Shown here piece after piece: positions 7,350-59,990 of a stretch of 64,000 nt of DNA. The position numbers and the translations under genes were made by a program. The DNA is from a bacterium (lineage in GTDB: Bacteria; UBA10199; JAIBAG01). Numbering within the stretch: position 1 is the first letter of the stretch; the number at the start of each line of letters is the position of its first letter. The notes under the pieces were generated by a model. That model worked only from the letters and a program-made list of their open reading frames with translations. It did not search any database and had not been told where the DNA came from. The stretch spans positions 18,774 to 82,773 of the forward strand of contig JAIBAG010000001.1 of NCBI GenBank assembly GCA_019695305.1. The letters are read 5' to 3'.

Positions 7350-7939
7350 GGATACAAACGCCCCACCACCCACTCCCCTTTTTCATTTTTACGATAGACA
7401 AAGCGATCGTGCAGGCGATACGGCTGCTCTATCCAAAATTCAATTTTAGAAGGATTTACTCTAAAACCACTCCAATGGGGCGGACGCGGAATTTCCTTAC
7501 CCTTAAACTTTTCAGAAAATTCCTTAAAACGTTTCTCTAAAGTATCACGGCTATCTAACACTTCACTCTGAAGGGAAGCCCAGGCGCCAATTTGGCTATC
7601 TAAAGGACGGGAACGAAAATACTCATCGGCTTCAGCATCACTAACAACACTAACCTTACCTTTAATACGCACCTGTTTTTTTAATTTTTCCCAATAAAAA
7701 TTAAGTGCTGCAACAGGATTCTTTTTTAAAGCGCGTCCTTTCGACGAATTAAAATTGGTAAAAAATACAAAACCATTTTCGTCAAAGCCTTTTAGTAAAA
7801 CAGTGCGGATGTCTGGATACCCGTTATCATCAAGAGTAGCCAGCATCATAGCCTCGGGCATGGAAAGCCCTGCATTTTTTTTGGCTTCTTCAAACCATTG
7901 GCCAAATTGCACAATAGGATTTGGGTTGAGTGCACTCAT
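7346..7939 (-). CDS. pdxH: Pyridoxamine 5'-phosphate oxidase
   Basis: Full-length match to the PdxH family, including the RTVLLKGFDENGFVFFTN region and the C-terminal WxGxR...P motif. Confidence 0.9.
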   Translation of the reverse strand: MSALNPNPIVQFGQWFEEAKKNAGLSMPEAMMLATLDDNGYPDIRTVLLKGFDENGFVFFTNFNSSKGRALKKNPVAALNFYWEKLKKQVRIKGKVSVVSDAEADEYFRSRPLDSQIGAWASLQSEVLDSRDTLEKRFKEFSEKFKGKEIPRPPHWSGFRVNPSKIEFWIEQPYRLHDRFVYRKNEKGEWVVGRLYP

Positions 7940-8913: not shown

Positions 8914-9116
8914 ATATTAGATCTCCTGTGTATGCCGTATGTAGGAAAAAACCCCAAAATGGTCCACTTTTTTTTAAAACTATCCATTTTTTATTTGACG
9001 TAAACCCCAAATCTTAATATCCACCCTGTTCTGTATCCTATATTGGATATAATCTCTCCTCCGATGGTTTGGAAGATGGATTGGGCATATTGCCCGTATT
9101 ATTTAATGGAGTATCT

Positions 9117-9332
9117 ATGAAAACACGCGGTCGCGTAAAATGGTTTAACGATTCTAAAGGTTTTGGTTTTATCGAGCAGGACAATGGCCAGGATGTATTT
9201 GTTCATTATTCAGCCATTGGTGGTGACGGTTATAAATCCCTCCAAGAAGGTCAGGAAGTTGAGTTTGAACTTCAAACTGGTGCTAAGGGCCCTATGGCTC
9301 AAAACGTAACCAAAGTTGAAGCTAACGCTTAA
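9117..9332 (+). CDS. Cold-shock protein, CspA family
   Basis: KGFGFI and [11 protein letters not shown] motifs. ATG at 9117 with a GGAG Shine-Dalgarno 7 nt upstream. The 5' UTR is long. Confidence 0.9.
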
Positions 9333-9401
9333 TCTTTTAAACGTTTCTTAAAAATTGAGTTTAAAATTCCCGCTCTATAAGCGGCATGGTTTTTTGCGGC
9401 C

Positions 9402-11078: not shown

Positions 11079-11201
11079 AAGCCTTGTGTCTAGCTGCGAG
11101 GTTTTGATTTAGCAAGATAGTTTTACGCAATTGGATGGAAAAGTGATAACAAAAATGACGCACCGTGGATAAACTTTTATCCCTTCTTAACAGGGAATTT
11201 C

Positions 11202-11612
11202 TTATTTTTCAAAGCTAACTAAATCGCCCTCTTTAAGTCCCCACACATGACTGCTTCCTCCGTTGACTTCCAGCACATAACGGTAAGATTTTGGTGAGCT
11301 AATATAATCGAGCGATAAGGGTTTGGCGTAAGGGGCTATGTGTACAATTTGTTTAGCGGAATTAATAAAAATTATATCGAGAGTAAGCGGGGTATTTTTC
11401 ATCCAAAATGAATTGTGCACATCTTCCTGCCACACAAAAAGCATGCCGCTAAATTTACCCAAAGATTCGCGAAACATCAGTCCCTTTTCGCGCGCTTCAG
11501 GGGTATCGGCTATTTCTGCGCTAACAACTTTATCCCCTACAATAACCTTAACTTGAGCATTTCCAAAACAGGCCGTAGAAAAGAGAAGAATACAAAATAA
11601 TATTTTTACCGA
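11202..11612 (-). CDS. DUF192 domain-containing secreted protein
   Basis: Length and conserved region (GLMFR...MLFVW) fit DUF192, and a signal peptide is present. The start is probably the GTG at 11610-11612, right after the gyrA stop. The longer ORF would overlap gyrA. Confidence 0.6.
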   Translation of the reverse strand, partial: SVKILFCILLFSTACFGNAQVKVIVGDKVVSAEIADTPEAREKGLMFRESLGKFSGMLFVWQEDVHNSFWMKNTPLTLDIIFINSAKQIVHIAPYAKPLSLDYISSPKSYRYVLEVNGGSSHVWGLKEGDLVSFEK

Positions 11613-11613
11613 T

Positions 11614-15454: not shown

Positions 15455-16360
15455 ATGAATGCTCCCACGCTTCATTCTGCAAGCCCTACGCCTCCCCAAA
15501 AGCCATCTGTATCGCTGGCCGAGGCTTATACCTTTTGCCTAAAATTGGCTCAGGGCCATTATGAAAATTTTCCTGTAGCTTCTTTTATTTTACCTAAAAA
15601 AATTCGTAAGCCGGTTGCCGCTATTTATGCCTTTTCACGAACGGCCGACGATTTTGCCGATGAAAAGGAACATGAAGGTTTGCGGATGGAAAAATTAAAG
15701 GACTGGGAAAAAGAATTAAAAACAATGGATTCTTCCCAAAACCCCATTTTTATTGCCTTAAACGACACGGTTAAAAATTTTAATGTGCCCGTATCGTTAT
15801 TGTCTGATCTTCTAACCGCTTTTAAAATGGATGTAACCGTAAACCGTTACAATAATTTTGAACAACTCTTAAACTATTGCCGCTATTCGGCCAATCCCGT
15901 AGGGCGTTTAGTTCTTACAATTATGGGGTATCCGGCTCCCAAGTTTATGGAGTATTCCGATTATATATGTACCGCTTTGCAACTGGCCAACCATTGGCAA
16001 GATGTTGGTATTGACGTTGATAAAAACCGCGTGTATCTCCCGCACGAAGATATGCTGCGCTTTGGCTATACCGAAAATGATCTTTTGGCTAAACGCTATA
16101 ATGTGCAATTTAAGAGGTTAATGAGTTTTGAAGTAGAACGCGCTATGGAACTTTTTGAGCAAGGAAAGCCTTTATGCGCTCTCTTACCTGGCCGTTTAGG
16201 TTTTGAAATACGTCTCACCTGGTTGGGTGGCGTGAGTATTCTTAAAAAAATAAAGGAAGTAGATGGTGACGTTTTTAACCATCGTCCACAGCTCACTAAA
16301 ATGGAAATGGCTAAACTTGCGTTTAACGCCTTGAGCCGAAACCACTTTAAAGGTATATAA
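15455..16360 (+). CDS. hpnC: Squalene/phytoene synthase family protein, HpnC-like (hydroxysqualene synthase)
   Basis: YENFPVASF motif and Asp-rich boxes (DDFADE) of trans-isoprenyl diphosphate synthases. Typical hpnC-hpnD gene order. Confidence 0.72.
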   Translation: MNAPTLHSASPTPPQKPSVSLAEAYTFCLKLAQGHYENFPVASFILPKKIRKPVAAIYAFSRTADDFADEKEHEGLRMEKLKDWEKELKTMDSSQNPIFIALNDTVKNFNVPVSLLSDLLTAFKMDVTVNRYNNFEQLLNYCRYSANPVGRLVLTIMGYPAPKFMEYSDYICTALQLANHWQDVGIDVDKNRVYLPHEDMLRFGYTENDLLAKRYNVQFKRLMSFEVERAMELFEQGKPLCALLPGRLGFEIRLTWLGGVSILKKIKEVDGDVFNHRPQLTKMEMAKLAFNALSRNHFKGI

Positions 16361-16365
16361 ACAAC

Positions 16366-17247
16366 ATGACTTCTAAAGTTGAAATACTTCCTAGCGATGA
16401 AGCCTTAAGTGGCCTGCCCAACGCAGCTACCATTACAGCCAGAGCCAAATCTAATTTTTCAAGTGCCTTTATTTTTTTGCCAGCCGAAAAACGCCTTGCC
16501 ATGAAGCGCGTATACGCTTTTTTTAGAGTTATTGACGATGTAGTCGATGAAGAACCCAATCCACTTCGCCAAAAAACCTTAATTGATTCGTGGAAACGTG
16601 AACTAGACAACACCTATAAAGGCACTACTATCGTTCCCTTACTTCAGGAACTTAAGGAATCTATCGATCGATTTCATATTCCAAAAGATTATTTTTTAAA
16701 GCTCATTGAAGGCTGTGAAATGGATATCACCAAAACTCGTTATGAAACTTTTGAGGAATTATACGAGTACTGCTACCGGGTTGCATCCATGGTGGGGCTT
16801 GTGTGTATGAAAATTTTTGAATTTGAAAGCCCTACATCTCAAAAAACAGCAATCGATTTGGGAATTGCCTTACAACTCACCAATATTATTAGAGACGTAG
16901 GTGTAGATTATTTTACCAAAGGCCGTATTTATTTGCCGTATGACGATTTAAAACGTTTTGGGATTACGGCTAACGATATTGAAAATAAAACAATGACACC
17001 CCCATTGCGTGCACTTCTTAATTTTCAATACGAACGGGCTGTACGTTATTACGAAAGCGGTGTGTCGGAATTTAACAACGATAAGCACAACAAACTACTG
17101 GCTGCCCGTATTATGGCCAGCGTTTACCGCACCATTTTAGAAAAAATTCGCAAAAAAGATTATCCTGTGCTCGAACCCAAACCTCTTAAGCTTAGCTTTA
17201 CCCGAAAAATGCTTATTTTGGCCCGTGTAATGCTTTTTTCGCACTAA
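16366..17247 (+). CDS. hpnD: Squalene/phytoene synthase family protein, HpnD-like (presqualene diphosphate synthase)
   Basis: SNFSSAFIFLP and VIDDVVDE motifs. 293 aa, directly downstream of hpnC. Confidence 0.72.
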   Translation: MTSKVEILPSDEALSGLPNAATITARAKSNFSSAFIFLPAEKRLAMKRVYAFFRVIDDVVDEEPNPLRQKTLIDSWKRELDNTYKGTTIVPLLQELKESIDRFHIPKDYFLKLIEGCEMDITKTRYETFEELYEYCYRVASMVGLVCMKIFEFESPTSQKTAIDLGIALQLTNIIRDVGVDYFTKGRIYLPYDDLKRFGITANDIENKTMTPPLRALLNFQYERAVRYYESGVSEFNNDKHNKLLAARIMASVYRTILEKIRKKDYPVLEPKPLKLSFTRKMLILARVMLFSH

Positions 17248-19850: not shown

Positions 19851-21548
19851 ATGACAAACAAAATATATAAATCTTTGTCTCTTACTTTAGGCTCTATTCT
19901 CATTCTTCACATTATTTTGTCTATCCCCAGTTTTTGGGTGCCCTTTTACAAGGTAGACGAACTCACAAACGCTATTTATGCCCGTTTAATTGTTAATCAT
20001 GAATTAAGCTTAAAAGACTTTTTAGGAAGCACTTATTTTTTCACTCATTATTTTTACGCTCTCATTTTTCGCTTAATCGATAACAATTCTCTTATTCCTG
20101 TACATATAGCTCATTGTCTTTGGAAATGCGGAACAATCACAGGCTTATATTTAGCCGGGAGTGAACTGAAAGATAAAAAAACAGGACTTTACGCTGCACT
20201 TTTTTATACCGTTTATAATTGGTGTTTTATGAGTAAAGACTTTCATACTCCCAGCGCCGAAAGCTTATCACTTTTACCTGCCAGCTTTACCGCCTATTTT
20301 TTATTTAAGGGCCTGCGCTTAAGTCAGCCTTATCTTTTTTTTATAACAGGAATTTTTTGTGGAATGGCGGCTCTTTTTAAAGCCCCCATGGGAATTACTT
20401 TAGTAGCACTTAATTTAGTTTTTATTTTTTATCATCAAAACAGAATTAAATCATTCTTGCTTCTTAATATAGGTTTTATTCTTACCTATTTATCTCCCAC
20501 AATTTTTTATGGCGATGTGGTGGAAGGCTTTAAAATAGTTTTTGCCACGCTGTACGATACTAAAACAGCCTACATGTCGTACCACAAAGACTCGTTTATT
20601 TATTGGGGAATAAAGTTTTTATTACGCACCATGCTTATTTTTGCTTCAACTTTTGGCATGAGCTTTTTGGCGGTATATGCCATTCGTTTTTTATTTAAAA
20701 ACAAAAATAAAAATTCTCAATGGATCCATGTATGGTTTCTTACGTTGTGGTTATTATTTTTGTGGTACGACGCGACGCTTGGAAAAAGAATTTTCTTTTA
20801 CTACTTTAAATTTATGTTGGTACCACTATCTCTTATGGCAGCTCTTAGCATTACTTCGTTAGATCATATTACAAAAAATACCACTTTCTCGTTTAAAACA
20901 TCCCGCTTTATTAAAAAGCATTTGGCTTATTTTATGCTTATTCCGCTCATTGGTTTTTCGGTTGAAGGCGCTTTTAATTTTTCTACCAAAGCAGTTATTC
21001 CTTTTAATTTTACACCGGCTATTGACTACATCAAAAGCACTACAAAACCCGACGATAAAATTTTTGTTTGGGGCTATATTCCGCAGCTTTATTTTTATAC
21101 CAATAGAGAACCCGCCTCTACCTTTTTTTGGAGCGATGTATTGGCAGGCTCTTCCCCCGGTTCGCCTGCCATGGAGTATATTCATGCTACCGGCAATAAT
21201 TTAACCCTAAGTGAAAAGCTCACCAAAGACATGGTGCCATTTTCTTTTTCCGAAGAAGAAGCCGAAAAAATTGATCATCATTCTCTGAGTAAAGTATCGG
21301 ATAACGACTTATTTACGGTAAATGAGCTTTTGGGGCGTATTGATAATGATCATTGGAAAAAGGTTTTTGATGATTTTTTTAAGCATCCCCCTGTTCTTTT
21401 TATTGATACAGCCCCTCTTAATTACCGCGGCTTTGGTTATTACCCCATTTCAAACTATGAACTGTTAAAACGTTTTATTGCCGATAATTATGTGTACGAC
21501 TCTACGGTAAGCGGCATGCCCATTTATAGGCTTAAAAATAACCTATGA
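19851..21548 (+). CDS. Polytopic membrane protein with a C-terminal soluble domain (GT-C / ArnT-PMT-like fold suspected)
   Basis: At least 10 predicted TM helices in the N-terminal two-thirds, then a ~150 aa hydrophilic domain. Its start is 1 bp after the stop of the upstream methyltransferase. Confidence 0.45.
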   Translation: MTNKIYKSLSLTLGSILILHIILSIPSFWVPFYKVDELTNAIYARLIVNHELSLKDFLGSTYFFTHYFYALIFRLIDNNSLIPVHIAHCLWKCGTITGLYLAGSELKDKKTGLYAALFYTVYNWCFMSKDFHTPSAESLSLLPASFTAYFLFKGLRLSQPYLFFITGIFCGMAALFKAPMGITLVALNLVFIFYHQNRIKSFLLLNIGFILTYLSPTIFYGDVVEGFKIVFATLYDTKTAYMSYHKDSFIYWGIKFLLRTMLIFASTFGMSFLAVYAIRFLFKNKNKNSQWIHVWFLTLWLLFLWYDATLGKRIFFYYFKFMLVPLSLMAALSITSLDHITKNTTFSFKTSRFIKKHLAYFMLIPLIGFSVEGAFNFSTKAVIPFNFTPAIDYIKSTTKPDDKIFVWGYIPQLYFYTNREPASTFFWSDVLAGSSPGSPAMEYIHATGNNLTLSEKLTKDMVPFSFSEEEAEKIDHHSLSKVSDNDLFTVNELLGRIDNDHWKKVFDDFFKHPPVLFIDTAPLNYRGFGYYPISNYELLKRFIADNYVYDSTVSGMPIYRLKNNL

Positions 21549-22234
21549 AAGAAACTAAGATTAAAAGTGCGTTTATCTGCGGCACCGACACAGGGGTAGG
21601 TAAAACCATCATCACCGCCTCAATGGCCGCCGCCTCTTTAAAAAAGGGGCAGCCCGTTGCCGTTTATAAACCGCTCGAATCGGGTCGTGCCCGTGCTGAT
21701 AGTACTTTGCTTAAAAAAATGTCGGGAATGAATGAAAAATTAAGCGAGATCAACACTTTCTTTTTCAAAAACCCGCTAGCGCCGGGTGTGGCTGCGGAGA
21801 TAGAAAAGAAAAATGTGTCGCTCACGGCAATTAAAAAGCAATTTAAAGTATTAGAAAAAAAGTACGGAACGGTTTTAGTGGAGGGAGCTGGCGGGCTGAT
21901 TGTGCCTGTATGGAAAAATAAAACAAATTTGGATTTAATTAAGTTTTTGGATATCCCGGTAATCCTCGTTGGCCGATTGGGATTGGGAACTATTAATCAT
22001 ACGCTTTTAACGCTTGAACATTTAAAACGAAACAAAATTAAAGTAGCGGGTGTCATTTTGAATCAAACTACAAAGAAAATAGGACTGGCGGAAAAAACAA
22101 ATCCTGAAATTCTTAAAAAAATGGGGGTTAAGCTGTGGGGGATTTTTCCTTATTTGCAAAAAATTGATCAGAAAACTCTGGCCCTTCACGGTTCACTCTT
22201 CACCCTTCAATTTCTTCCACCCCGAAGGCCGTAA
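21545..22234 (+). CDS. bioD: Dethiobiotin synthetase
   Basis: P-loop CGTDTGVGKT, KPLESG and EGAGGLIVP motifs typical of BioD. Confidence 0.8.
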   Translation: MKETKIKSAFICGTDTGVGKTIITASMAAASLKKGQPVAVYKPLESGRARADSTLLKKMSGMNEKLSEINTFFFKNPLAPGVAAEIEKKNVSLTAIKKQFKVLEKKYGTVLVEGAGGLIVPVWKNKTNLDLIKFLDIPVILVGRLGLGTINHTLLTLEHLKRNKIKVAGVILNQTTKKIGLAEKTNPEILKKMGVKLWGIFPYLQKIDQKTLALHGSLFTLQFLPPRRP

Positions 22235-23412: not shown

Positions 23413-24261
23413 ATGGCTCAAATCATCGACGGAAAAGCACTCTCCCAGCAGGTAAGAAACGATATTAAAACGAGAGTAAGCGAACTTAAAAATACAAAAA
23501 ACATCACACCGGGGCTTGCCACCATCCTTGTAGGCGAAGACCCCGCCAGCCAAGTTTATATCAACAGCAAAAATAAAATGTGTGTGGAAGCCGGCATGGC
23601 CTCGTTCCATGAACATTTACCAGCCGATACGTCCGAAGCCGATTTGCTCAAACTGATTGATAAACTCAACAACGATAAAAACGTGCACGGCATTTTAGTA
23701 CAGCTGCCTCTTCCTAAACAGATTAATGCCGATCGTGTGCTGGAAGCCATCGATCCCAAAAAAGACGTAGATGGTTTTCATCCAATCAATGTTGGTAATC
23801 TGGTTGTCGGTAAAAAATGTTTAAAACCCTGCACCCCCTACGGGATGATTAAAATGCTCGAGTCGATCAACTACGATTTAAGCGGTAAACACGCGGTGGT
23901 GATTGGCCGTAGTAATATTGTAGGTAAACCCATTGCGCTGATGCTCTTGGAAAAAAACGCGACGGTCACAATCTGTCATTCACGCACGCCCGATATTGCT
24001 TCTGTTGTAAGACAAGCCGATGTGGTGGTGGCCGCTGTGGGCCGTGCTCAATTTGTAAAAGGGGACTGGATTAAAAAAGGCGCTGTTGTGCTCGATGTCG
24101 GCATCAACCGTTTAGAGTCCGGCAAACTGGTAGGAGATGTTGATTACGAAGCAGCCTCTCAAAACGCCAGCGCCATCACCCCCGTCCCCGGCGGCGTGGG
24201 GCCCATGACGATTGCGATGCTCTTGTATAATACGGTGGAAGCAGCTGGAAACACTCTATAA
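23413..24261 (+). CDS. folD: Bifunctional methylenetetrahydrofolate dehydrogenase / methenyltetrahydrofolate cyclohydrolase
   Basis: IIDGKALS N-terminus, YINSKNK and GRSNIVGKP motifs. 282 aa. Confidence 0.92.
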
Positions 24262-24308
24262 ATCAGCCCTTTACTTCAGCATGCCACTCATGTACATTGT
24301 ACATAGTT

Positions 24309-24563
24309 ATGAAACATTACTCCGCAACCGAAGCCCGCAAAAACTTTTTTAGCCTTCTGGACGATGCCTTGGAAGGCAACAAGGTTTATATTGAAAGAGA
24401 AGGGCACGTTTTGGAGCTTTTGCCAAAAAAGAAAAAAACCAAAAAACTTTCTTATAAAAAATTCTTCCTTTCTTCTCCTTCCGTTGATGATGCCGATACC
24501 TGGGGCTGGGAATGGAAACCTGATAGTGGACTTCATTTTATTAACAAAAAAAGAAAAAAATGA
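24309..24563 (+). CDS. Type II antitoxin, Phd/YefM-like
   Basis: MKHYSATEARKNFFSLLDDALEGNKVYIEREGH resembles the Phd/YefM N-terminal fold. The gene overlaps the downstream PIN gene by 4 bp (ATGA). Confidence 0.6.
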   Translation: MKHYSATEARKNFFSLLDDALEGNKVYIEREGHVLELLPKKKKTKKLSYKKFFLSSPSVDDADTWGWEWKPDSGLHFINKKRKK

Positions 24564-24931
24564 AGACCGTCCTTCTTGATACGCATATCCTCATTTGGCT
24601 CTTAAGCGATTCTTCCAAACTCAAAAACCTTTCGTGGCTTAGAAAGCCTTCGTATTATACAGTTTCACCTGTTTCTCTTCTGGAATTAAAATTTTTAAAT
24701 GAATGCGGAAGGCTCAATTTATCGCTCGAATCTCTAATCAAGCAATTACAAAAAGATGAAACCTACCATATCGACTCGGTTGATCTGTCCACCATATGCT
24801 TTGCAGCCTTTAATCTAGAATGGACCAGAGATCCTTTTGACAGGCTAATAACAGCTCATAGTCTGGCCAAAAAAATACCCTTGGGAACCTGCGATAACCT
24901 GATTTTAAAAAACCACAAGCTTTTGGCTTAA
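24560..24931 (+). CDS. vapC: Type II toxin, VapC-like PIN-domain ribonuclease
   Basis: LLDTHILIW (first acidic residue), DPFDRLI and the other conserved acidic PIN positions. 123 aa. Confidence 0.75.
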   Translation: MKTVLLDTHILIWLLSDSSKLKNLSWLRKPSYYTVSPVSLLELKFLNECGRLNLSLESLIKQLQKDETYHIDSVDLSTICFAAFNLEWTRDPFDRLITAHSLAKKIPLGTCDNLILKNHKLLA

Positions 24932-24982
24932 ATAAGATCCTTCTTTCTTGCCATGCCCAAAAAATCTTGCTAGTCGCAATGT

Positions 24983-26065
24983 GTGCTTAAAAAAACTCCG
25001 CTCAATGAAATTCATAAATCGTTAGGTGCCCGCATGGTAGAGTTTGGCGGCTGGGAAATGCCTGTTCAATACACGGGTGTAATTGATGAACACAATGCCG
25101 TTCGCAATGCCGTTGGCCTATTTGATATCAGCCACATGGGCGAGATTATTGTTGAGGGCGAACTCGCCAAAGATTTCATCAATTACATCACCACCAATAA
25201 AATCGATAAAATTAAAGACGGAGGCTGCCAATATGCCGCCGTATGTAACCCAGATGGCGGCTGCGTGGATGATGTGATTAGCTACCAGTACAACCCTCAG
25301 AAATATCTGGTAGTGGTGAACGCCTCTAACACCGATAAAGATTTTGCCTGGTTTACTGAAAACAACATGCATGGGGTTTCTATTGCCAACGTCAGCCCCC
25401 AATATTGCCAATTAGCCCTCCAGGGCCCAAAAGCAGAGGCAACACTCCAGCCATTAATCCGCTTTCCTCTGGGCGATCTCAAATATTACACTTTTTGCGA
25501 AACCGAAATGAAAGGCATCCCCATCATCCTCTCGCGCACGGGCTACACCGGCGAAGATGGATTTGAAATTTACGGGGCATCAAACCGAGCCGTGGATTTA
25601 TGGAACATGCTGATGAAAGCGGGCGAAGCCCATGGTATTAAGCCTATCGGTTTGGCGGCCCGCGACACCTTAAGATTGGAACCTTCTTACTCGCTTTATG
25701 GCCACGAAATTACCGATACTGTTAATCCATTAGAAGCAAGGCTTGGATGGGTAGTAGCACTTGACAAACCCGACTTTATTGGCAAAGACTCACTTGAAAA
25801 AATAAAGCAAAGCGGGGTAAAACGCACCATTATCGGTTTGGAAATGATCGATAAAGCAGTTCCCCGCCAAGGTTACGAAATTGAAAATGCGAGTGGCAAA
25901 ATAGGGGTGGTAACGAGTGGCACTTTTTCTCCCACACTCGAAAAATCGATCGCCATGGCATTGATTGATAAAAAAGCTGCCGATCATGATGAATTTTTTG
26001 TAGTGGTGCGCGGTAAAAAAATGAAAGCTAAAAAAATATCTCTGCCTTTTTATAAAAGAAAGTAG
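24983..26065 (+). CDS. gcvT: Glycine cleavage system aminomethyltransferase T
   Basis: Family-wide similarity (KTPL...GARMVEFGGWEMPVQY, DISHMG). GTG start at 24983. Confidence 0.9.
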   Translation: MLKKTPLNEIHKSLGARMVEFGGWEMPVQYTGVIDEHNAVRNAVGLFDISHMGEIIVEGELAKDFINYITTNKIDKIKDGGCQYAAVCNPDGGCVDDVISYQYNPQKYLVVVNASNTDKDFAWFTENNMHGVSIANVSPQYCQLALQGPKAEATLQPLIRFPLGDLKYYTFCETEMKGIPIILSRTGYTGEDGFEIYGASNRAVDLWNMLMKAGEAHGIKPIGLAARDTLRLEPSYSLYGHEITDTVNPLEARLGWVVALDKPDFIGKDSLEKIKQSGVKRTIIGLEMIDKAVPRQGYEIENASGKIGVVTSGTFSPTLEKSIAMALIDKKAADHDEFFVVVRGKKMKAKKISLPFYKRK

Positions 26066-26070
26066 GTTTT

Positions 26071-26457
26071 ATGGAATTTCCAGGTGATTTAAAATACTCC
26101 AAAGAACATGAATGGATCCGCATTGAAGGTAAAGTGGCCACTATTGGCATCACCGACTTTGCCCAAGATCAATTGGGAGATGTCGTGATGGTAGAATTTC
26201 CTAACGAAGGTGCCATCCTTACCAAAGACGAAACCTTTGGTGTGGTGGAATCGGTAAAATCTGTGAGCGATGTGTTTGCTCCCATTTCGGGCAAAGTGTT
26301 AGAAACCAACGAACCCTTAGCCGACAGCCCGGGCATTATTAACGAAGATTGTTATAACGAAGGTTGGATCATTAAAATGGAAATTACGGATCCTAAGCAA
26401 GTAGACGAATTATTAACAGTGGACCAATACAAGGCTTACTTGGCCGAACAAGGCTAA
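26071..26457 (+). CDS. gcvH: Glycine cleavage system H protein
   Basis: Lipoyl-lysine motif ESVKSVSDV and YSKEHEW N-terminus. Confidence 0.92.
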
Positions 26458-26458
26458 T

Positions 26459-29338
26459 ATGGACTCTCACGAATCTTTTGCACGCCGGCATTTGGGATTA
26501 AACGAACGTGAAACCCAAATTATGCTGGCCTATTTGGGCTATAAAAATATCGACTCTTTTATAGACGCTGTAGTTCCCGCCAATATTCGTCTTAAAAAAG
26601 AACTCAATTTGGGACCCGGCGTTTCGGAGCGCGAAGCACTTATTGAACTCAAAGAACTTTCCCGTAAAAACAAGGTTTTTAAAAATTACATTGGCATGGG
26701 TTATGCCGATTGCATGACACCCTCGGTAATTTTACGCAATATCATGGAAGATCCGGGTTGGTACACACAGTACACTCCCTATCAATCCGAAATTTCTCAG
26801 GGGCGCCTGGAAGCGCTTCTCAACTTTCAAACGCTCATTTGCGATTTGACTAAAATGGATATTGCCAATGCGTCACTTTTAGACGAAGCCACCGCCACCG
26901 CCGAAGCCATGAGCATGTGCTTTAATTTAAAGGAAAATGACTCCAATCTGTTTTTTGTATCCGATAAATGCCATCCGCAAAATATTGCCGTTGTACAAAC
27001 ACGCGCTAAACCTTTGGGAATTAACGTAGTGGTTGGCGATTATAAAAAATTTGATTTTTCGCAAAAAGTATTTGGCGTTTTACTCCAATATCCCGACACT
27101 ACCGGCAGCATTGAAAGTTACGGCGATTTTATTACCAAAGTAAAAGCTCAAGGAGGCCTCTCGGTTGTTTCGGCCGATTTAATGAGTTTAGTGCTTATTA
27201 CCCCTCCGGGTGAATTTGGCGCCGATATTGTGGTGGGATGTGCGCAACGTTTTGGTGTGCCCTTAGGCTACGGCGGCCCTCATGCCGCTTATATGGCTAC
27301 ACGGGATGATTTTAAACGCAAACTCCCTGGCCGTTTGGTGGGTGTATCTAAAGATGCCCAGGGAAATCCGGCTATTCGTCTTACCTTGCAGACGCGTGAA
27401 CAGCACATTCGACGTGACAAGGCCACCAGCAACATTTGTACTGCCCAAGTTTTACTTGCCGTAATGGCTTCTATGTATGCCGTGTATCATGGGCCAGAGG
27501 GATTAAAGGCCATTGCCACAAAAATTAACTTTATGGCCCGCCTGTTAAAAGAAGGGCTTCTTGGTTTGGGTTTAAAAGTAGCCGACAATGCTTTTTTTGA
27601 CACGCTCACCGTTAATTTAGATAGTGATACCGCCCAAAAAATTATTAATTTGGCCCGCAACCGTGAAATGAATTTCCGTAATTTTGAAAACGGTGCCATT
27701 GGGCTTGCGGTAGATGAAACCACCAGTGAAAAAGACGTAGAAAAAGTACTTACTGTTTTTCAGAATGTATTGGAAAAAAACTCACCGCAAAAATTATCAA
27801 TAGCTGTAAAGCCAGAAGGGTTAAAACCTTCTTTTTCTAAAAACTTTGCTCGCACCAGTACCTTCTTAACGCACCCTTCTTTTAATACTTATCATAGCGA
27901 AACCGAAATGCTGCGTTATATGAACCGCTTAAAAGCAAAAGATTTATCGCTCACTACCTCCATGATTCCTCTTGGTTCGTGCACCATGAAACTCAATGCC
28001 ACAACCGAGATGATGCCGGTTACCTGGAATGGTTTTTCCAAACTCCATCCCTTTGTACCCGTTGAACAAGCCCCCGGTTATACCGAAATGAACACGCAGC
28101 TAGAAGCATGGCTGAGTGAAATTACAGGTTTTGCAGCAACTTCGTTACAACCTAATGCCGGCAGCCAGGGTGAATATGCCGGACTTTTGGTCATTGCGGC
28201 TTATCACGAAGCACGCGGTGAAGCGCATCGTAATGTATGCCTTATTCCTCAATCGGCTCATGGTACTAACCCTGCAACAGCAGCAATGGCGGGCATGGAG
28301 GTTGTGGTGGTGAAGTGCGATAAAAATGGAAACGTGGATATCAGCGATTTACAAGCTAAAGCCAAAGAACATTCTAAAAACTTGGCTGCACTCATGATTA
28401 CTTATCCGTCTACACACGGTGTGTTTGAAGAAGAAATTAAAGAAATTTGTGCCATTATCCATCAACAAGGTGGCCAGGTATATATGGATGGCGCCAATAT
28501 GAATGCTCAGGTAGGACTTACTCGTCCTGGCGATTTTGGAGCGGATGTTTGCCATCTTAATTTGCACAAAACCTTTTGCATCCCGCACGGGGGTGGTGGC
28601 CCAGGAATTGGCCCTATTTGTGTAGCGGAGCACTTAAAAGAATTTTTGCCCAATAATCCGGTAGTACCTATGGGCGGCAAACAATCGGTGGGCGCGGTTT
28701 CGGCAGCCCCCTGGGGTTCAGCCAGCATTTTACCCATTCCCTACACCTATATCCGCATGATGGGCTTTAGCGGCCTTAAGCAAGCCACTCAGGTGGCTAT
28801 TTTAAATGCCAACTACATGGCCAAAAAACTTTCTCCTCATTATCCTGTTCTTTATAAAGGCAAAAGCGGTTTGGTTGCGCACGAATGTATTATTGATTTA
28901 CGCCCGTTAAAAACAACATCGGGTGTTGAAGTGGAAGATGTAGCAAAAAGACTGATGGATTATGGTTTTCATGCTCCCACGGTTTCCTTTCCTGTGCCCG
29001 GAACCTTGATGGTGGAACCAACAGAAAGCGAAAGCTTGGCCGAACTCGATCGTTTTTGCGAGGCCATGATTCTCATTAAAAAAGAAATTGATGATATTGC
29101 TAGTGGCAAAATGGATAAGCAAAATAACCCGCTTAAAAACGCCCCGCATACAGCTACAGTTGTAACCGCTACCTCTTGGGATAAACCCTATAGCCGCGAA
29201 CAAGCCGCCTACCCCGCGCCTTGGTTACGCGACCATAAATACTGGCCTCCCGTCTCCCGCGTGGACAATGTATATGGGGATCGCAATGTGTTTTGCAGCT
29301 GTATCCCTGTGCAAGATGCTGAAATTACGCAGAGTTAG
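26459..29338 (+). CDS. gcvP: Glycine dehydrogenase (decarboxylating), single-chain P protein
   Basis: 959 aa. Two PLP-fold halves, including the [19 protein letters not shown] region. Confidence 0.95.
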
Positions 29339-36139: not shown

Positions 36140-38755
36140 TTAATCATACCAATGGTATCTAATGTCGTTATATTCCTCCATCGTATAACAGGTTACGTTA
36201 TCGGGCATGGTATCAACAGCCAGCACCTTACCTTCAAAACTATTGATATCCACCACGCATTGGTAATCGGCCACAATTAAATCATATTGTGCCTTCATGG
36301 TTGCTTGGTCTGTTTCTACCCATTTGCCGTTGTCCACATGCCAGCCTCTAAATTGAAGTTTTATATCGGCATATTCACCACAATCATCCCGTGTGGCATA
36401 AAGGCCGGGCACTTCCGACACCAAGAAAAAACCATTTCCAGCAAAATAAAGCTCTTCTCCGTAGCAAACATGAGTAGTGGCCGTCGGTACACTCATTTCA
36501 TCTAACGGCGTGCTGGCAAAAACATCATCTGGTGTGGTGATGGCCATTTTATAGGAATCGTTGACTGTTGTTTTTCTAACCCAATACTCATTCACTACCG
36601 CCTCATAAACAGTGTTAGGTAAATGAATGTCTAATAGAGCATGGCTTTGCCAGGTATCGGTTTTGTAAAAAATGTTGATGAGATAGTTTGAAAAACTCAT
36701 GGCCACATTTTCGTCAAAACTTAAAGCACGTTCAGCGCTTGTGTTAAGCTCAAAAGTAGCCACGTCATTAATTTGATTTCCATCCACATCAGCAATTTGC
36801 AGACGATCTTTATAAGAATATCCCAAGCCATCTACAAAGCCCGAACTTGTAAAAGGAAGAATAATTCTCTTCAGCGATTCATCAACCCGAACCACCTGGT
36901 CATCATTATCGGCCAAAGAACTATAATTTTGATAATCGGTGCCTAACAATAAGGCATCTTGTTCGGCGCCCGTTAAATCAAATAAATTTACTGTTCCCAT
37001 GCTCTGACGGCTTTCTGCTGCACCATAAAAGGTAGTGCCAAAAGCAAGCAATTGATTATCCAAAACAAACATTTGAGACAAATCTCCCGCCAATGCAATA
37101 TCACTATCCAAAACAGGAATTGCAGGGTTTGTTAAATTAACCGCATGGAGAGTGCTCAAATCCATGACATCATAATAGTTAGAATTATCGGTGGTATTGA
37201 CAAAAAGTTTTTCCGGCGAAAACTGAGAAGCCGAAATTCTTTCAGCATCTGTACCAATACCCTCCAAAACATTGGTTTCAATTACAGAATTGCCCTGCAA
37301 TGAAAATGTGTTTAATTCATTTTCGGTAGATAACGCATAAAAGAATCCCTCGTTAAAATAGAGGCGGCTTAAATCATCAACATGGCCTTTAATTTCAACC
37401 GGGTTTTGTGTGATGTTAATTTTATTAGTACTAACAGTTGAAAGAGTATCATCCAAACGAATAAAATTATCGTTTTCAAAACGGTAGATGGTAAAACGAG
37501 TGGATAAATCATCCCTATAAATGGGGTAGTCGTCTGTTTTTGTAATTGTCTGTGTACACACTTGATACGTAACATCTTCACATTCGGTCCCTTTATTGAC
37601 ATAGATATAACGACTTAAACTAGGACCTTTAGATTGCAGACATTCTAACAAACTCCCACGGCACGAAACTGTAGATCCCTGCGCTACATAATCTGGATTA
37701 GGTACTTTTTCCCACTCGATATGACACACTTCTTTTGTAACCTGTCTATAAGCAGTACATTCTTGATAAGTACGCTTTTCGTAATGGTCTAATACCATTT
37801 CATTATGAGAGCGGCTTACCACTAAATAACGATCACTGGCACTTACAAAATTATTGTAGCGTGTCCACGACGAAACCACATCGGCATCATCTTTTTCTTC
37901 CTCATAAAGAAAATCATCATGCGATGTTTCTAAAAGTTTATCGTTTGTTGCTATAATGGTGAGTGAATAATTTTTAGGTTCTTGATAATACCAGTATGGT
38001 ATAGGCTCCGGATCTTCATCCGAAAAAGTTTGTGTATAAACGGCCAGTGTATGATTAAACAAGCGGGCATCTACAATAAATTTGTTCTCTAAAAACACAC
38101 CGCTGTCATAAATCAAATTGCCATTTTCAATAGTGTACTTAAGAACGCCGCCACTTTTACCATCCAAACTGTTGGTAAAAACAAGAATGGCATTATCTTT
38201 TAAAATAAAATTTTTAGGAGATCCCGGTAAAGTTACGGCACAACTGATTTTGCTGGCCACAGGATTAGCGCTATTAACATCCGCCATAAATAAACCAAGG
38301 GGCCTGGATAAATACAAAGCATGATTTTGTTCTTGAGCTACAAGATCGGGGCGAAGAATCTCAACTGATGCAGGGCTTAATGCCACATCTTCTACTAGGT
38401 CCCAGCCTTCAAATCCCGATAACACACGGGGATTGGTATCGTCTTCAGCAACTGGTATTTGATAAGGTTTAGAAAACCCACCTAATTCATCCGAAATAGT
38501 TTTAAAGCTATCGCTATTTGGAAACTCACAGCGAGACGATACGAGCGGATCAAACGAGAGATATTGACGCATTTCATCGGTTGATAAGCTGGTTACAGAT
38601 GCGTTTAAAACAGAGAGACTATCTGGCATTTCCCCTTTTGGTTTAATTACAAGCTTATTATCTTTAGTTTCTGTACTGCTATTACTACTACTATTGCAGT
38701 TGATGACAAAAAAAATCAAAGACACACTTAAAAAATTTCGTATTAAGTTTTTCAT
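36140..38755 (-). CDS. Large hypothetical lipoprotein of 871 aa
   Basis: Signal peptide with a Cys lipobox (FFVINC), then a Ser-rich linker and a long beta-rich region. No motif recognised. Confidence 0.55.
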   Translation of the reverse strand: MKNLIRNFLSVSLIFFVINCNSSSNSSTETKDNKLVIKPKGEMPDSLSVLNASVTSLSTDEMRQYLSFDPLVSSRCEFPNSDSFKTISDELGGFSKPYQIPVAEDDTNPRVLSGFEGWDLVEDVALSPASVEILRPDLVAQEQNHALYLSRPLGLFMADVNSANPVASKISCAVTLPGSPKNFILKDNAILVFTNSLDGKSGGVLKYTIENGNLIYDSGVFLENKFIVDARLFNHTLAVYTQTFSDEDPEPIPYWYYQEPKNYSLTIIATNDKLLETSHDDFLYEEEKDDADVVSSWTRYNNFVSASDRYLVVSRSHNEMVLDHYEKRTYQECTAYRQVTKEVCHIEWEKVPNPDYVAQGSTVSCRGSLLECLQSKGPSLSRYIYVNKGTECEDVTYQVCTQTITKTDDYPIYRDDLSTRFTIYRFENDNFIRLDDTLSTVSTNKINITQNPVEIKGHVDDLSRLYFNEGFFYALSTENELNTFSLQGNSVIETNVLEGIGTDAERISASQFSPEKLFVNTTDNSNYYDVMDLSTLHAVNLTNPAIPVLDSDIALAGDLSQMFVLDNQLLAFGTTFYGAAESRQSMGTVNLFDLTGAEQDALLLGTDYQNYSSLADNDDQVVRVDESLKRIILPFTSSGFVDGLGYSYKDRLQIADVDGNQINDVATFELNTSAERALSFDENVAMSFSNYLINIFYKTDTWQSHALLDIHLPNTVYEAVVNEYWVRKTTVNDSYKMAITTPDDVFASTPLDEMSVPTATTHVCYGEELYFAGNGFFLVSEVPGLYATRDDCGEYADIKLQFRGWHVDNGKWVETDQATMKAQYDLIVADYQCVVDINSFEGKVLAVDTMPDNVTCYTMEEYNDIRYHWYD

Positions 38756-56580: not shown

Positions 56581-56654
56581 CCCTTTTAGTAATAACAGAG
56601 CCTTCTAAACACCCTATTGACATTTGTCTATAAAACCGACTAGTGACCCCTCAT

Positions 56655-56875
56655 TGGTTGTAAGACCTAGTAACCATAAAGCCGAGCGATGCTTGTCTCT
56701 ATGGAACTAGCTCTAAAGGAAGTCCGGTGTAATTCCGGCACGGTCCCGCCGCTGTAAGCTGGGGGTCTTTTTAAGATCAACCTCTGTGCAAAGCAAGTCA
56801 CTGTCCCGAACTATCGGGGTGGGAAGACCGCACAAGAGGCCAGCAAGTCAGAATACCAGCCAATCCATTCAAAAT
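56655..56875 (+). ncRNA. Cobalamin (B12) riboswitch
   Basis: Core AAAGGAAGTCCGGTGTAATTCCGGCACGGTCCCGCCGCTGTAAG fits the consensus GGGAA..GGTG.AA.TCC..GC.G.CCCGCCACTGT. A downstream AGTCACTG...GGGAAG and a B12-box-like AGTCAGAATACCAGCC are present. A sigma-70-like TTGACA lies at 56618. The element sits in the 5' leader of the lipoprotein gene at 56993. Confidence 0.8.
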
Positions 56876-56992
56876 TATTTGGATGTGCAGTGCGAGCGAC
56901 ACTTTGTTTTGGTTCCTTCCTTTTGGAATTTTTCCCCAAGACATCGTCTGTTCTCGCTTGTTGAAAATATAAAAATTCAACAGGAGAATCCC

Positions 56993-58291
56993 ATGAAAAA
57001 ATATCTTTCTTTATTTACTATTCTATTTCTATTTGCCGCTTGTGGCAGTGTACAAAACCAAGCAACAGGCAGCATTAACGATGATGATTTAGATAACGTA
57101 TTAAGTCCGCTTGATGACCCTGATACTGATATCCCTGAGGATAGTGATGAAATTGTGTATGACGATACCTTTGTTGCTTACATGTACGGAACGGCATATG
57201 GTTCTAATGGCCAGCTTTTTCTTACTTCTACAGCAACGCTTGATACACTTTTTAACAGCGGCGTTCCTAGCTTGGGCAATGATGCCATTATCAAAGCTCA
57301 AAATAATTTGGTGTATGTTTTGCACCGTGGAGGAGCATTCGTTTCGGGCTCTACCGATAACGTGCAAATTATTGATCCGGCCAATAGCTTTGCAACGGTC
57401 AATCAATGGTCTACCGGTAACGGCACCAACCCACAGGACATCATTATTATTGATAATAAAGCCTTCATCAGCTTAGGCAATCCAGAATCCGATCCGGATA
57501 ATGTGGCCGATAATGGTAAACCCGGCGACGTAATTGTGATGAATTTAGATACTGGTAACATCGAAAATCGCATCAGCTTTTTTGATTTGTTAAATGATGA
57601 TGATTACAAAGCATCTAATGCCAACAAAATGTTGCTTATTGACGATAAAATTTATGTATTGGTTCAGGATTTAGGCGAAGGCTTTAATCCTTATGCCATT
57701 AATGCAGCAGGGCATTTAGTCACATTGGATGCCACCACCGGCGAGCGCCTGGATAGCATTACCCTGGCGGGGCGTAATCCTGTAGGGTTGGCCGTTAGTC
57801 ACGATAAAAAAACAATCTATGTTTCTTTTGGAGCTCCATTTGATGACTGGTTTACAATAAACGAATACGAAACGGATGAATTTGGCGGCTTACAAATTTT
57901 ATCGGCCGCCGATACAACGCACAGTACTTTTATTGCCGATAATAGTTTTGGAGGATATTTGGAAGGCATTGCCACCGGTAATGGTCTGTTGTACGTTACC
58001 ATTTCTCATTACAATGCTTCAAATTTTAGTTTTACCTCCAACATTTGGACCATGGATGAGACCAACACAAACGTAGAAGGTTTTTTTAACCTATTGCCTG
58101 CAGCACAAGACATTAGAACTTTTGCCATAGCGCCGGATGGTAATTTATGGGTTTCGTACCGAACCATTTTTAAAGAAACCGGCATAGCAGGTGATGCCAC
58201 AGTAGAAATTTTGGACGGCATCACCGGCGATTATACTGGCACAACATACACGCCCAGTGCGCCCGTAGTTTCTATCGCCTTTGAAAAATAG
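56993..58291 (+). CDS. Beta-propeller surface lipoprotein under a B12 riboswitch. Candidate BtuG-like cobalamin-binding protein.
   Basis: Signal peptide with lipobox LFAACGS. GGAGAA Shine-Dalgarno 6 nt upstream of the ATG. Repeated beta-strand-rich segments consistent with a 7-bladed propeller. Immediately downstream of the cobalamin riboswitch. Confidence 0.55.
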   Translation: MKKYLSLFTILFLFAACGSVQNQATGSINDDDLDNVLSPLDDPDTDIPEDSDEIVYDDTFVAYMYGTAYGSNGQLFLTSTATLDTLFNSGVPSLGNDAIIKAQNNLVYVLHRGGAFVSGSTDNVQIIDPANSFATVNQWSTGNGTNPQDIIIIDNKAFISLGNPESDPDNVADNGKPGDVIVMNLDTGNIENRISFFDLLNDDDYKASNANKMLLIDDKIYVLVQDLGEGFNPYAINAAGHLVTLDATTGERLDSITLAGRNPVGLAVSHDKKTIYVSFGAPFDDWFTINEYETDEFGGLQILSAADTTHSTFIADNSFGGYLEGIATGNGLLYVTISHYNASNFSFTSNIWTMDETNTNVEGFFNLLPAAQDIRTFAIAPDGNLWVSYRTIFKETGIAGDATVEILDGITGDYTGTTYTPSAPVVSIAFEK

Positions 58292-58303
58292 ACCAACAAG
58301 GAA

Positions 58304-58345
58304 TCCGGGGGCCGTAAATAACGACGGCCCCCGGACCCCAATTTT
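58304..58345 (+). terminator. Probable Rho-independent terminator after the riboswitch-controlled lipoprotein gene
   Basis: 12-bp stem TCCGGGGGCCGT/ACGGCCCCCGGA with an 8-nt loop, followed by CCCCAATTTTG. The T-run is weak. Confidence 0.5.
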
Positions 58346-58523
58346 GTAGTCTTCTGTGGTTTTTTCCCCGCATGTTTTTTACAAGTTTTCTTTTCTCACT
58401 TTTTACCACCTATAAATAGTTGATTTATATATATAATTTTAAATCATTTTTCTTTATTTTGGCTTCAAAATTGCATATCTATTGATTGGGCACAATTAGG
58501 GAAATCAACACTTGGAGGACCCT

Positions 58524-59990
58524 ATGCGCCTTTTTTTATTTCTGTTAGCTTTCTTTTTAACCTCAACAGCTTATGCCCAAACCATTGATCAGCTTTTCGA
58601 TGTACGGATTGATGATGCCTTTTTCTACAATGATGATGTAGCTAACCTTATACCAGAATCTTCCGCTGATTATGCAGTTGATAAAATGATTTATGACCCA
58701 AACCTTTCGCGTATGGTGGGGGGCGGAACTCATGGCACCGAATACATCACCCTCATTCAATATTTTATGGAACCACAAGACAGCAGAACCACTTTTGGTG
58801 AATTTGATAAGGTTTATTATTACGATTTAAATGCTAATAAAAAACCAACCCGTGTTGTGAGCTTGATGAGCGACTCTAATTATTATTACATGCTGGCAGA
58901 ATATACTTTAGGCACAGGTGAGTACGCCAAATTTGGCAGCACCATTTTAAAAATTGAAAAACGAAATCCCAATCATTACGAAGAAAAAGATCTTTCCACC
59001 ATTTTTATGACACCTCAGTATGATGCTTCTAAATCTTTAAAAGGTGGCTTTGCCGAATTATCGGTTGATAACAATAAAATTATAGGCAGCGTAACACAAG
59101 TAAAGCGCACTTTTGTGTTTGTTTTATCCACTAGCACTTTAATGCCCACAAATTTTGGTCGCGATCAAACAAGCCCCGAAGGGCGTGTTGGGGTAACCGA
59201 CGGTATACCGGATGGTTATACTGTAATAGATATGCCTAAAGGTGGCAATGTAGGTGCACGCGTTAACGGAGGCTACGTTATTTTTACAAAAGATGCCGAT
59301 CCTCTTGGTAATCATTATGCTGTTTTTATTGACCGTAATGGATTTGTTAAAAATGAATTTAATGATGCAGGTAAAAATTACCGTACATATCACTTTGCGG
59401 AAGATGATTTTAGTTTAGTGGGTGTTAAATACAACAGGCCCACCAACCAAATTATTATTGTTGGCACCATTGAATGCAGCAATAAAATTTTAATTAGCCG
59501 CCTAAGACAAAACAACGGACGTGCAGATATTGAGAACACCAATGTTATTGAAGAAGATCTTGCTTATCAACATGCTATCACGGTCGCCGATTTCGTTGTA
59601 CGTCCCGAATCGGGCATTATTATTTTATTTGGTAAATATACCATATTTGAAATGCGTCCACCGGGTTATGGGTTTTATACAAGTGAGGATCAAATTGAAA
59701 ACGACTTGGCTTTAGGCGCTGATGTTTTTCGAATTAAAAATGCCTATGTTGCTGTTATAGGAAACGATAATGAAATGATCAATTTAGGAACATCCACTGC
59801 TATTACCTCGGACTTTTTGGAAAAGGCCTATATTTTAACAAGAATTGGCATTAGCTATAATGCAGCGGGGTTTACCGCTGGCGCTACATATTCTAATAAT
59901 TATTTGTATATGACAGGCCTCATGGATAATGATTATATGCCCTTTGTTAAAGTGGAATACACCCCACCGGTTTCAAAGTTTGTGCGATAG
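58524..59990 (+). CDS. Hypothetical secreted protein of 489 aa
   Basis: Signal peptide MRLFLFLLAFFLTSTAYAQ. GGAGG Shine-Dalgarno 5 nt upstream of ATG 58524. No recognised domain. Confidence 0.55.
   Translation: MRLFLFLLAFFLTSTAYAQTIDQLFDVRIDDAFFYNDDVANLIPESSADYAVDKMIYDPNLSRMVGGGTHGTEYITLIQYFMEPQDSRTTFGEFDKVYYYDLNANKKPTRVVSLMSDSNYYYMLAEYTLGTGEYAKFGSTILKIEKRNPNHYEEKDLSTIFMTPQYDASKSLKGGFAELSVDNNKIIGSVTQVKRTFVFVLSTSTLMPTNFGRDQTSPEGRVGVTDGIPDGYTVIDMPKGGNVGARVNGGYVIFTKDADPLGNHYAVFIDRNGFVKNEFNDAGKNYRTYHFAEDDFSLVGVKYNRPTNQIIIVGTIECSNKILISRLRQNNGRADIENTNVIEEDLAYQHAITVADFVVRPESGIIILFGKYTIFEMRPPGYGFYTSEDQIENDLALGADVFRIKNAYVAVIGNDNEMINLGTSTAITSDFLEKAYILTRIGISYNAAGFTAGATYSNNYLYMTGLMDNDYMPFVKVEYTPPVSKFVR

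Follow-up and report, generated by a model that had tools for sequence, protein, structure and literature searches.

The stretch examined here, a 64,000-nucleotide segment of contig JAIBAG010000001.1 from an uncultured bacterium (assembly GCA_019695305.1; hereafter the window), carries on its plus strand a cobalamin riboswitch followed by a gene for a 432-aa lipoprotein (56993..58291). An initial annotation of the same DNA had read this pair as a candidate B12-capture protein of the BtuG type in an organism outside the Bacteroidota. BtuG1 (BT1490), BtuG2 (BT1954) and BtuG3 (BT2095) are surface lipoproteins of Bacteroides thetaiotaomicron, and BtuG has been shown to bind corrinoids at fM-pM affinity and to cap the BtuB transporter (PMC6143338, PMC10404256).

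The cobalamin riboswitch and its leader

The covariance model RF00174 (Rfam; gathering score 31.5 bits) matches the plus strand at 56670..56878 with 64.0 bits (E 1.7e-13 for the whole 64-kb window), and the match is full-length, covering model positions 1-189 of 189. On this basis the element is assigned to the cobalamin riboswitch aptamers of the adenosylcobalamin (AdoCbl) type. The aptamer contains a GGAAGUCCGGUG...CCGGC core and a B12-box-like AGUCAGAAUACCAGCC; every sequence string quoted in the initial annotation was found at its coordinates, and the cobalamin riboswitch it had placed upstream of the lipoprotein gene is confirmed by the Rfam scan. The only other Rfam matches in the window were one tRNA and one cspA-type element. 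From the end of the aptamer to the start codon of the lipoprotein gene there are 114 nt on the same strand, with no gene between them.

Folding of the segment 56840-57010 points to two competing structures in this leader. In the minimum free energy fold as well as in the centroid fold, the 3' strand of the aptamer (~56841-56856; CAGCAAGUCAGAAUA) pairs with 56950-56964 (UGUUCUCGCUUGUUG), marking 56841..56965 (+) as a candidate switching region, or anti-sequestor. The second structure is a hairpin at 56950..56989 (+), in which the 5' arm 56950-56965 pairs with 56976-56989, the segment that holds the AGGAG ribosome binding site (RBS; 56982-56986) 7 nt 5' of the start codon. This sequestor hairpin (dG -12.9 kcal/mol; z -3.4) was not equalled by any of 200 dinucleotide shuffles. 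Both pairings compete for one 5' arm (56950-56965) and are therefore mutually exclusive helices, from which we infer, on thermodynamics alone, the layout of a translational OFF switch.

The leaders of close homologues differ from that of the window: they share a GCGAGGACAA RBS motif 11-57 nt past the aptamer and are equally compact, and two of them have terminator-like hairpins. The btuB leader of Escherichia coli and other RF00174 riboswitches belong to the same aptamer family as the element in the window, and the btuB leader follows the OFF-switch logic proposed here, in which the RBS of an uptake gene is hidden. The gene regulated in the window, in contrast, encodes neither a transporter nor a biosynthesis enzyme, and the sequestor platform is specific to the window.

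We claim no promoter in the leader. A scan gave 12 sites, compared with 11.0 +/- 3.3 in shuffled sequences, and a perfect -35 hexamer (TTGACA, 56617-56622), 48 nt 5' of the aptamer, lacks a convincing -10 element at a spacing of 16-18 nt.

The lipoprotein

The gene at 56993..58291 is described here as encoding a lipoprotein of the BtuG superfamily on the basis of its open reading frame (ORF), lipobox, structural model and profile homology. Its product begins with a signal peptide (residues 1-16) and a lipobox, MKKYLSLFTILFLFAA followed by C17 (LFLFAA before C17), with Cys17 as the lipid-anchor residue. An acidic disordered linker follows (residues 18-58; 14 D/E and no K/R), and the propeller occupies residues ~59-432. 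The mature protein is strongly acidic, with 59 D+E against 16 K+R. In the family alignment the Cys column is at least 90% conserved, and the lipobox pattern is present in 18 of 22 members.

The protein is identical to the NCBI hypothetical protein K1X76_00390, encoded on a 324-kb contig of an uncultured "bacterium" metagenome-assembled genome (MAG). Searches against Pfam and NCBIfam gave nothing above threshold, in agreement with the initial statement that the product is not BtuB, a BtuFCD component or a biosynthesis enzyme.

Past the stop codon lies a GC-rich hairpin (58300..58339, +; 16 bp, of which 12 are G-C pairs), the probable terminator that the initial annotation had also placed after the gene. 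Folding gave a second small hairpin with a T-run at 58355-58372. The T-tail of the first hairpin is weak on the plus strand (ACCCCAAUUUUG), and terminator-like sites in the region are no more frequent than in shuffles, so that the hairpin suggests, without proving, a monocistronic unit.

Conservation of the riboswitch-propeller pairing

The window protein belongs to a group of ~22 unnamed homologues (family A; 36-45% identity), all from MAGs labelled Deltaproteobacteria, Nitrospirales or bacterium. The family has the private motifs FATDYxSSGQ, SSDNVQIIDP, QWSTGNGTNPQD, GRNP, LGGYVE and DIRD. A cobalamin riboswitch heads the operon in all 11 non-redundant close loci (12/12 with the window), seven being confirmed by Rfam (63-109 bits) and four by an nhmmer profile (E 1e-13 to 1e-23). 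This recurrence indicates that the link between riboswitch and gene is not due to chance. A second lipoprotein (family B) is encoded in 10 of the 11 close loci other than the window, and several also encode a third (family C). One locus (L015) is solo, without family B, like the window.

A sceptical reading would be that the product is a generic surface propeller of the YncE/YVTN kind with no relation to B12, and that the riboswitch is a chance neighbour or regulates something else. It draws on direct sequence searches (Pfam, NCBIfam and PDB), which returned weak single-blade signals only, to the MADH heavy chain, YVTN, YncE and NHL. The riboswitch, however, lies on the same strand at the short distance given above, and the pairing is kept in 12/12 close loci and in most of 68 distant ones (see below). 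We consider this reading extremely improbable, the comparative data having effectively refuted it.

Predicted fold and homology to BtuG

An AlphaFold2 model of the window protein was built from the 22-sequence family alignment (predicted local distance difference test score, pLDDT, 82.9; predicted template modelling score 0.81). The model is confident and all-beta. Residues 15-57 form a disordered tether, and the 27 strands fit a propeller of seven blades, which substantiates the initial description of a beta-propeller lipoprotein of ~430 aa. In a Foldseek search of 350,542 PDB chains, ranks 1-12 were taken by BtuG2, BtuG3 and the BtuG of Bacteroides uniformis (E 2.7e-13 to 7e-12; template modelling scores 0.70-0.78 on target length), followed by putative lactonases at ~1e-10. 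Propellers cross-match readily, so the Foldseek ranking alone is a lead and not a proof.

An identity of the YncE or lactonase type was also considered and rejected. The NCBIfam model 7_blade_YncE scores 11.8 bits on the window protein against a cut-off of 400, Pfam Lactonase matches only two of the 22 family members (best E 0.002), and both rank below BtuG structurally. The initial annotation had named an unrelated fold, or clear homology to lactonases or YncE, as what would overturn its reading; neither was found.

As reference for the sequence comparison we used 11 full-length BtuG sequences (Table S2 of Wexler et al. 2018), BtuG having been defined originally by BlastP at E < 1e-10 to BT1490, BT1954 or BT2095. 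The connection runs through an alignment of 35 distant, TonB-receptor-linked propellers (A6). Aligned by hhalign, family A matches A6 over its full length and in register (100%, E 3e-62), with a mean identity of 26% and the shared motifs GNGTNPQD and DNxQxLDP. A6 in turn aligns with BtuG in register to the C-terminus (98.7%, E 2.2e-16). Searched against all PDB sequences, a hidden Markov model (HMM) of A6 returned nine BtuG entries (E 9.5e-12 to 6.4e-10) and then WDR5 at 1e-3.

The window protein is, by this transitive profile homology, a member of the BtuG superfamily, and by two methods BtuG (BtuG1, BtuG2 and BtuG3) is the nearest solved structure of the modelled protein, the comparison that the initial annotation had called for. 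Membership in this wider superfamily is borne out by the fold, the profile homology, the lipoprotein nature and the riboswitch control. Mean identity of the window family to BtuG is ~15%. Among 1.84 billion cluster representatives (50% identity), the family profile found 94 proteins at E <= 1e-30 and 787 at E <= 1e-10. None of the superfamily members tested was matched by a Pfam or NCBIfam model.

Receptor-linked relatives in other phyla

One genome per GTDB species was scanned with the family motifs, which gave 75 loci, seven of them close and the rest distant (22-36% identity). The hosts of the distant relatives are Latescibacterota, Krumholzibacteriota, Eisenbacteria, Gemmatimonadota, Binatia, Planctomycetota and unclassified MAGs. 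Counted over 68 non-redundant distant loci, a gene for a TonB-dependent receptor lies immediately 5' of the propeller gene in 66. A riboswitch match was present in 50 of the 64 loci having enough upstream sequence, and Rfam confirmed all eight that were tested (65-129 bits). In NCBIfam the receptor is matched best by the model for TonB-dependent vitamin B12 receptors (TIGR01779; E 6e-47), with a score that stays below the equivalog cut-off.

A family B gene occurs in 13 of the 68 loci, typically in the order riboswitch-B-receptor-propeller in Binatia-like MAGs, and salvage genes occur in six. Exemplified by a locus from Latescibacterota (L063, 7249-14103), the riboswitch is followed by genes for a TonB-dependent receptor (Plug and barrel), the propeller, BtuR/CobO, CobU, CobT and CobS; L081 (Gemmatimonadota, 7305-12839) and L038 (7491-10969) start in the same way. 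The distant loci thus represent the BtuB-BtuG arrangement outside the Bacteroidota.

BtuG has been presented as exclusive to the Bacteroidetes (PMC6143338), and in a survey the proximity of BtuB and BtuG genes was found almost only in Bacteroidota (bioRxiv 10.1101/2023.03.17.533168). A review of September 2026 places BtuG within the Bacteroidota only and treats a wider distribution for BtuH and BtuJ (PMC13616437). In the literature searched we found no description of such BtuB-BtuG-like operons from the phyla represented by L016-L083, and no work combining BtuG with these phyla.

Most of the receptor-linked propellers of the FCB group (A6; e.g. L052 8478-9890 and L083 9848-11260) have ordinary signal peptides and no lipobox, and carry a C-terminal extension of ~80-100 aa with FlgD_ig-type matches, some of them like sorting domains. 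This suggests that they are anchored differently from the lipoproteins of the window's clade. The riboswitch-receptor-propeller operons (L016-L083) share superfamily and riboswitch class with the window. Their propellers follow a B12-type TonB receptor, in some cases with btuR-cobUTS thereafter, whereas the window's clade is without this linkage.

In a neighbour-joining tree rooted on BtuG (Poisson distances, 349 columns, 100 bootstraps) the window's clade is monophyletic in 100/100 replicates, and its sister group is L016 plus P0023 in 96/100. L016 has the gene order receptor-propeller-B. The remaining receptor-linked propellers fall outside the window's clade and L016/P0023 in 57/100. Linkage to the receptor is probably ancestral and was probably lost in the ancestor of the window's clade, a conclusion drawn from a distance tree at high divergence.

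The operon contexts also bear on the idea that the protein has a B12-related job other than binding, either as an enzyme with corrinoids or corrinoid precursors as substrates or as a B12-independent substitute function, with the conserved polar top face as its active site. The homology is specific to BtuG and not to lactonases, the relatives stand in receptor-then-propeller operons that in some cases include salvage genes, a classic uptake context, and a lipoprotein with a disordered tether would be unusual for a metabolic enzyme. We regard such a function as most unlikely.

A proposed role in corrinoid capture

We consider it probable that the unit in the window encodes a B12-repressed, outer-membrane-anchored lipoprotein of the BtuG superfamily with a predicted role in corrinoid capture, its transporter partner being encoded elsewhere. 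The BtuG-like reading of the initial annotation is supported by the riboswitch link, the fold, the transitive homology and the receptor-linked relatives under the same riboswitch.

With plentiful AdoCbl the aptamer would keep its 3' strand, so that the sequestor closes over the AGGAG and translation stops. When B12 is scarce, the lipoprotein would be made, lipidated and anchored to the outer membrane. There it would bind corrinoids on the conserved acidic top face of its propeller and hand them to an outer-membrane transporter, presumably encoded elsewhere in the window's lineage after the receptor linkage had been lost. In most sister genomes the family B lipoprotein may assist the hand-over; the window is without family B.

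BtuG and the window protein are alike in being acidic lipoproteins with a seven-bladed propeller under a B12 riboswitch, and are homologous via the intermediate family. In comparison with BtuG, the window protein has a ~40-residue acidic tether, ~60 extra loop residues and its own set of motifs, is without the Bacteroidota export signal or an adjacent TonB receptor, and comes from an uncultured host outside the Bacteroidota. A further likeness is to BtuK1 (BT1486; PDB 9S6C; PMC13616437), a B12-binding lipoprotein of B. thetaiotaomicron with a PKD domain and a seven-bladed propeller. BtuK1, too, is a propeller lipoprotein under riboswitch control; it does not itself form the transporter lid, and its gene cluster has no receptor gene of its own immediately beside it.

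To compare the binding faces, the corrinoid contacts of BtuG2 (E55, G56, F58, Q93, N107, S131, R133/135, W149, W194, S195, Q219, W272, Y316 and Y335) were taken from bioRxiv 10.1101/2024.02.16.580637 and PMC10404256. Aligned jointly with MAFFT, family A and BtuG were in register over all blades (LGD/LG, TSPR/TNPQ, GIQP/GRNP and LGDWP/LGGYxE). In family A, seven of the 15 contact positions (T67, D68, N146, Y162, N262, Y322 and R375) map to columns with a conservation of 90% or more, an enrichment over the 20% background of conserved columns (hypergeometric p 0.015), and the residues there are other polar or aromatic ones. By strand assignment, the invariant residues of family A lie in loops of the top face of a YVTN-type propeller. 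BtuG2 attracts corrinoids with a negatively charged face (PMC10404256).

A number of observations weigh against the proposed role. As to homology, a family A HMM searched against PDB sequences at E <= 10 did not find BtuG, and the direct hhalign comparison of family A with BtuG scored well (97.5%, E 5e-12) but was blade-shifted across the repeats, so the homology rests on the intermediate group; on account of this offset the direct alignment was not counted as evidence of orthology. At the binding face, the window protein retains none of the 15 BtuG2 contact residues, the consensus of family A agrees with that of the BtuG family in only two residues (Y162 and N262), and at two positions aligned with the pocket the window copy differs from the consensus of its own family (D68>A and Y162>G). 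As to gene context, no TonB receptor, BtuFCD-type ATP-binding cassette (ABC) importer, ECF/BtuM transporter or cobalamin-synthesis enzyme was found among 49 window ORFs, and a TonB-dependent receptor lies beside the propeller gene in 0 of 12 close loci, the window included. With neither receptor nor importer in the 64 kb examined, the acceptor of the captured corrinoid is hypothetical. No Bacteroidota-type export signal (K/Q-(D/E)2) was found after Cys17, where the sequence reads CGSVQNQ and the acidic run starts at +13. A hidden copy of family B or family C was sought in all six frames of the window by tblastn and with a B-module HMM, and none was found; the window protein also has the longest branch within its own clade. 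By direct similarity, contact residues and receptor adjacency the protein falls outside BtuG in the narrow sense.

Parts of the initial annotation have to be qualified in this light. Its remark that no TonB receptor or ABC importer is nearby was correct, and its description of the protein as stand-alone holds for gene order only, as a receptor may be encoded elsewhere. The suggestion of the same corrin-binding face stands for the positions, which are conserved, and not for the residues, which differ. The predicted pocket would probably have kept the location of that in BtuG with a different chemistry.

The two departures at pocket positions, the longest branch and the missing partner B mean that the window copy could be specialised or decaying. 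Taken further, it would be a degenerating or re-purposed remnant of a BtuG-like family that no longer takes part in B12 uptake, and its riboswitch is indeed among the two lowest Rfam-confirmed scores of the close family (64 against 63-109 bits). The ORF, however, is intact over its whole length, its signal peptide, lipobox and RBS are all good, and the riboswitch still scores well above the threshold and is followed by the statistically significant sequestor hairpin. The seven deviations of the window copy in 92 consensus columns lie within the range of the other core members (0-8), and L015 is solo as well. We find a remnant very unlikely.

The sequence following Cys17 also raises the question of which side of the membrane the propeller faces. 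A corrinoid binder that faces the periplasm, anchored either in the inner membrane or in the inner leaflet of the outer one, might hold and hand over corrinoids in the manner of BtuF. In keeping with this, most diderms other than Bacteroidota are thought to be without surface-display machinery for such lids (bioRxiv 10.1101/2023.03.17.533168), and the receptor gene is nowhere adjacent in the close loci. Yet BtuG2 itself scores negative for the canonical export signal and is surface-exposed, homologues in other phyla are encoded directly past a TonB receptor, as is BtuG, and the FlgD_ig-type C-terminal extensions of many homologues suggest secretion. The long acidic linker, too, fits a tethered extracellular domain. 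A periplasmic position seems quite unlikely to us.

A further reading is that capture in this lineage is independent of a receptor altogether. The BtuG-like propeller, usually together with families B and C, would then act as a tethered and extremely acidic "corrinoid sponge", hoarding B12 at the surface or relaying it there. Delivery would bypass a dedicated lid-and-barrel complex and might take place via a non-TonB channel, or the protein might have a role in storage, competition or sensing. The family B module would in that case be a corrinoid-binding domain not recognised before and common among Myxococcota and bacteria of the FCB group. We think this unlikely.

Accessory lipoprotein families

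The family B lipoproteins of the window's clade carry a Big_2 Ig-like domain and, after it, a conserved ~200-aa module (motifs GGFG, DGPGxDFTIFEN, VAVSxDG, GCAG, SGGDxFDL and GFDLDA). The module has no match in Pfam and no DUF4465 (BtuJ) signal. Its wider family, which is widespread, consists of secreted proteins of ~200-300 aa (more than 245 at E < 1e-5). Family B is present in 27 loci with a B12 riboswitch, e.g. L002 (6359-7474), L005 (7192-8820) and L030 (6715-7635), and operons of the Binatia type encode the module alone or with dockerin-like tails.

The best PDB sequence match of family B is BtuH2 (BT1956; PDB 7BIZ) at E 0.15, a protein with Ig-like domains and a C-terminal B12-binding domain. 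Family B, by comparison, has a Big_2 Ig domain and then a C-terminal beta-sandwich module; the statistics are marginal and homology is not established. A confident model of family B (pLDDT 85.3) matched 7BIZ in Foldseek at E 1.2e-5, with generic Ig and CBM32/discoidin structures equally good. Given these values and the missing DUF4465 signal, an identification as BtuH was left as suggestive. A BtuH-like role is plausible, and the module is a candidate corrinoid-binding domain. A weak resemblance to the Leptospira LIC_13355 lipoprotein family was also noticed, besides that to BtuH2.

Riboswitch-controlled lipoproteins of family C are encoded at L005 8897-10081, L008 4749-6137, L006 3759-5204 and L007 3082-4194, and a 412-aa lipoprotein is encoded between riboswitch and propeller gene at L002 3844-5082. 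No family was detectable for either family C or the 412-aa protein.

Wider distribution and implications

The BtuG superfamily, for which there is no Pfam or NCBIfam model, comprises ~94 to 790 clusters (50% identity) and extends over many environmental phyla, in which the riboswitch-receptor-propeller operon is the rule. Lipoprotein-assisted B12 capture is therefore not a speciality of gut Bacteroides. The window's clade has uncoupled the propeller from the receptor and has paired it with a conserved, uncharacterised secreted module.

If the protein does bind corrinoids, the scaffold it shares with BtuG would carry a second corrinoid pocket of different chemistry. The protein could then mark B12 scavenging among uncultured bacteria of groundwater and sediment, with family B as a candidate new B12-binding domain.

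Other features of the window

A Pfam scan of the 49 window ORFs found housekeeping functions, among them GyrA, FolD, GcvTHP, the 2-oxoacid dehydrogenase complex, squalene/phytoene synthases, flagellin, a sigma factor, MscS and SDR. A match to AAA_26/CbiA at 21545-22234 was considered as a cob gene and rejected, the protein being of the dethiobiotin-synthase type.

The initial annotation had also pointed to a second secreted protein after the lipoprotein gene. The ORF is present (58524-59990, +; 488 aa) and has a Sec signal peptide (MRLFLFLLAFFLTSTAYA followed by Q), but nothing ties it to the system. It lies past the 58300-58339 hairpin and a 230-nt AT-rich spacer, belongs to no Pfam or NCBIfam family and is absent from all 83 related loci. 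A search of 5.8 billion proteins gave no homologue at E <= 0.001 and did not return the protein itself, which may be unannotated in the source record. It was not accepted as a component of the system and, if the gene is real at all, is an orphan secreted protein.

The folD-gcvT-gcvH-gcvP genes (23413-29338) lie ~27 kb 5' of the riboswitch in the window, and immediately 5' of the riboswitch-propeller operon in L005 (268-5662) and L010. This placement is a trace of shared gene order, with a possible link to one-carbon metabolism through the B12-dependent methionine synthase.

The cspA-type element is a match to the cspA thermoregulator RF01766 at 8963-9349 (+), with 82.9 bits against a gathering score of 78. 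It spans the leader and coding sequence of a cold-shock gene (ORF 9069-9332), and its score comes largely from the conserved coding part. On the minus strand, a 791-aa protein with Chlamydia polymorphic-membrane-protein repeats is encoded at 2458-4833, and an 871-aa protein without a Pfam match at 36140-38755. Tandem squalene/phytoene synthase genes (15455-17247, +) and a flavin amine-oxidase-type gene (4934-6307, -) form a set that resembles the HpnCDE squalene route.

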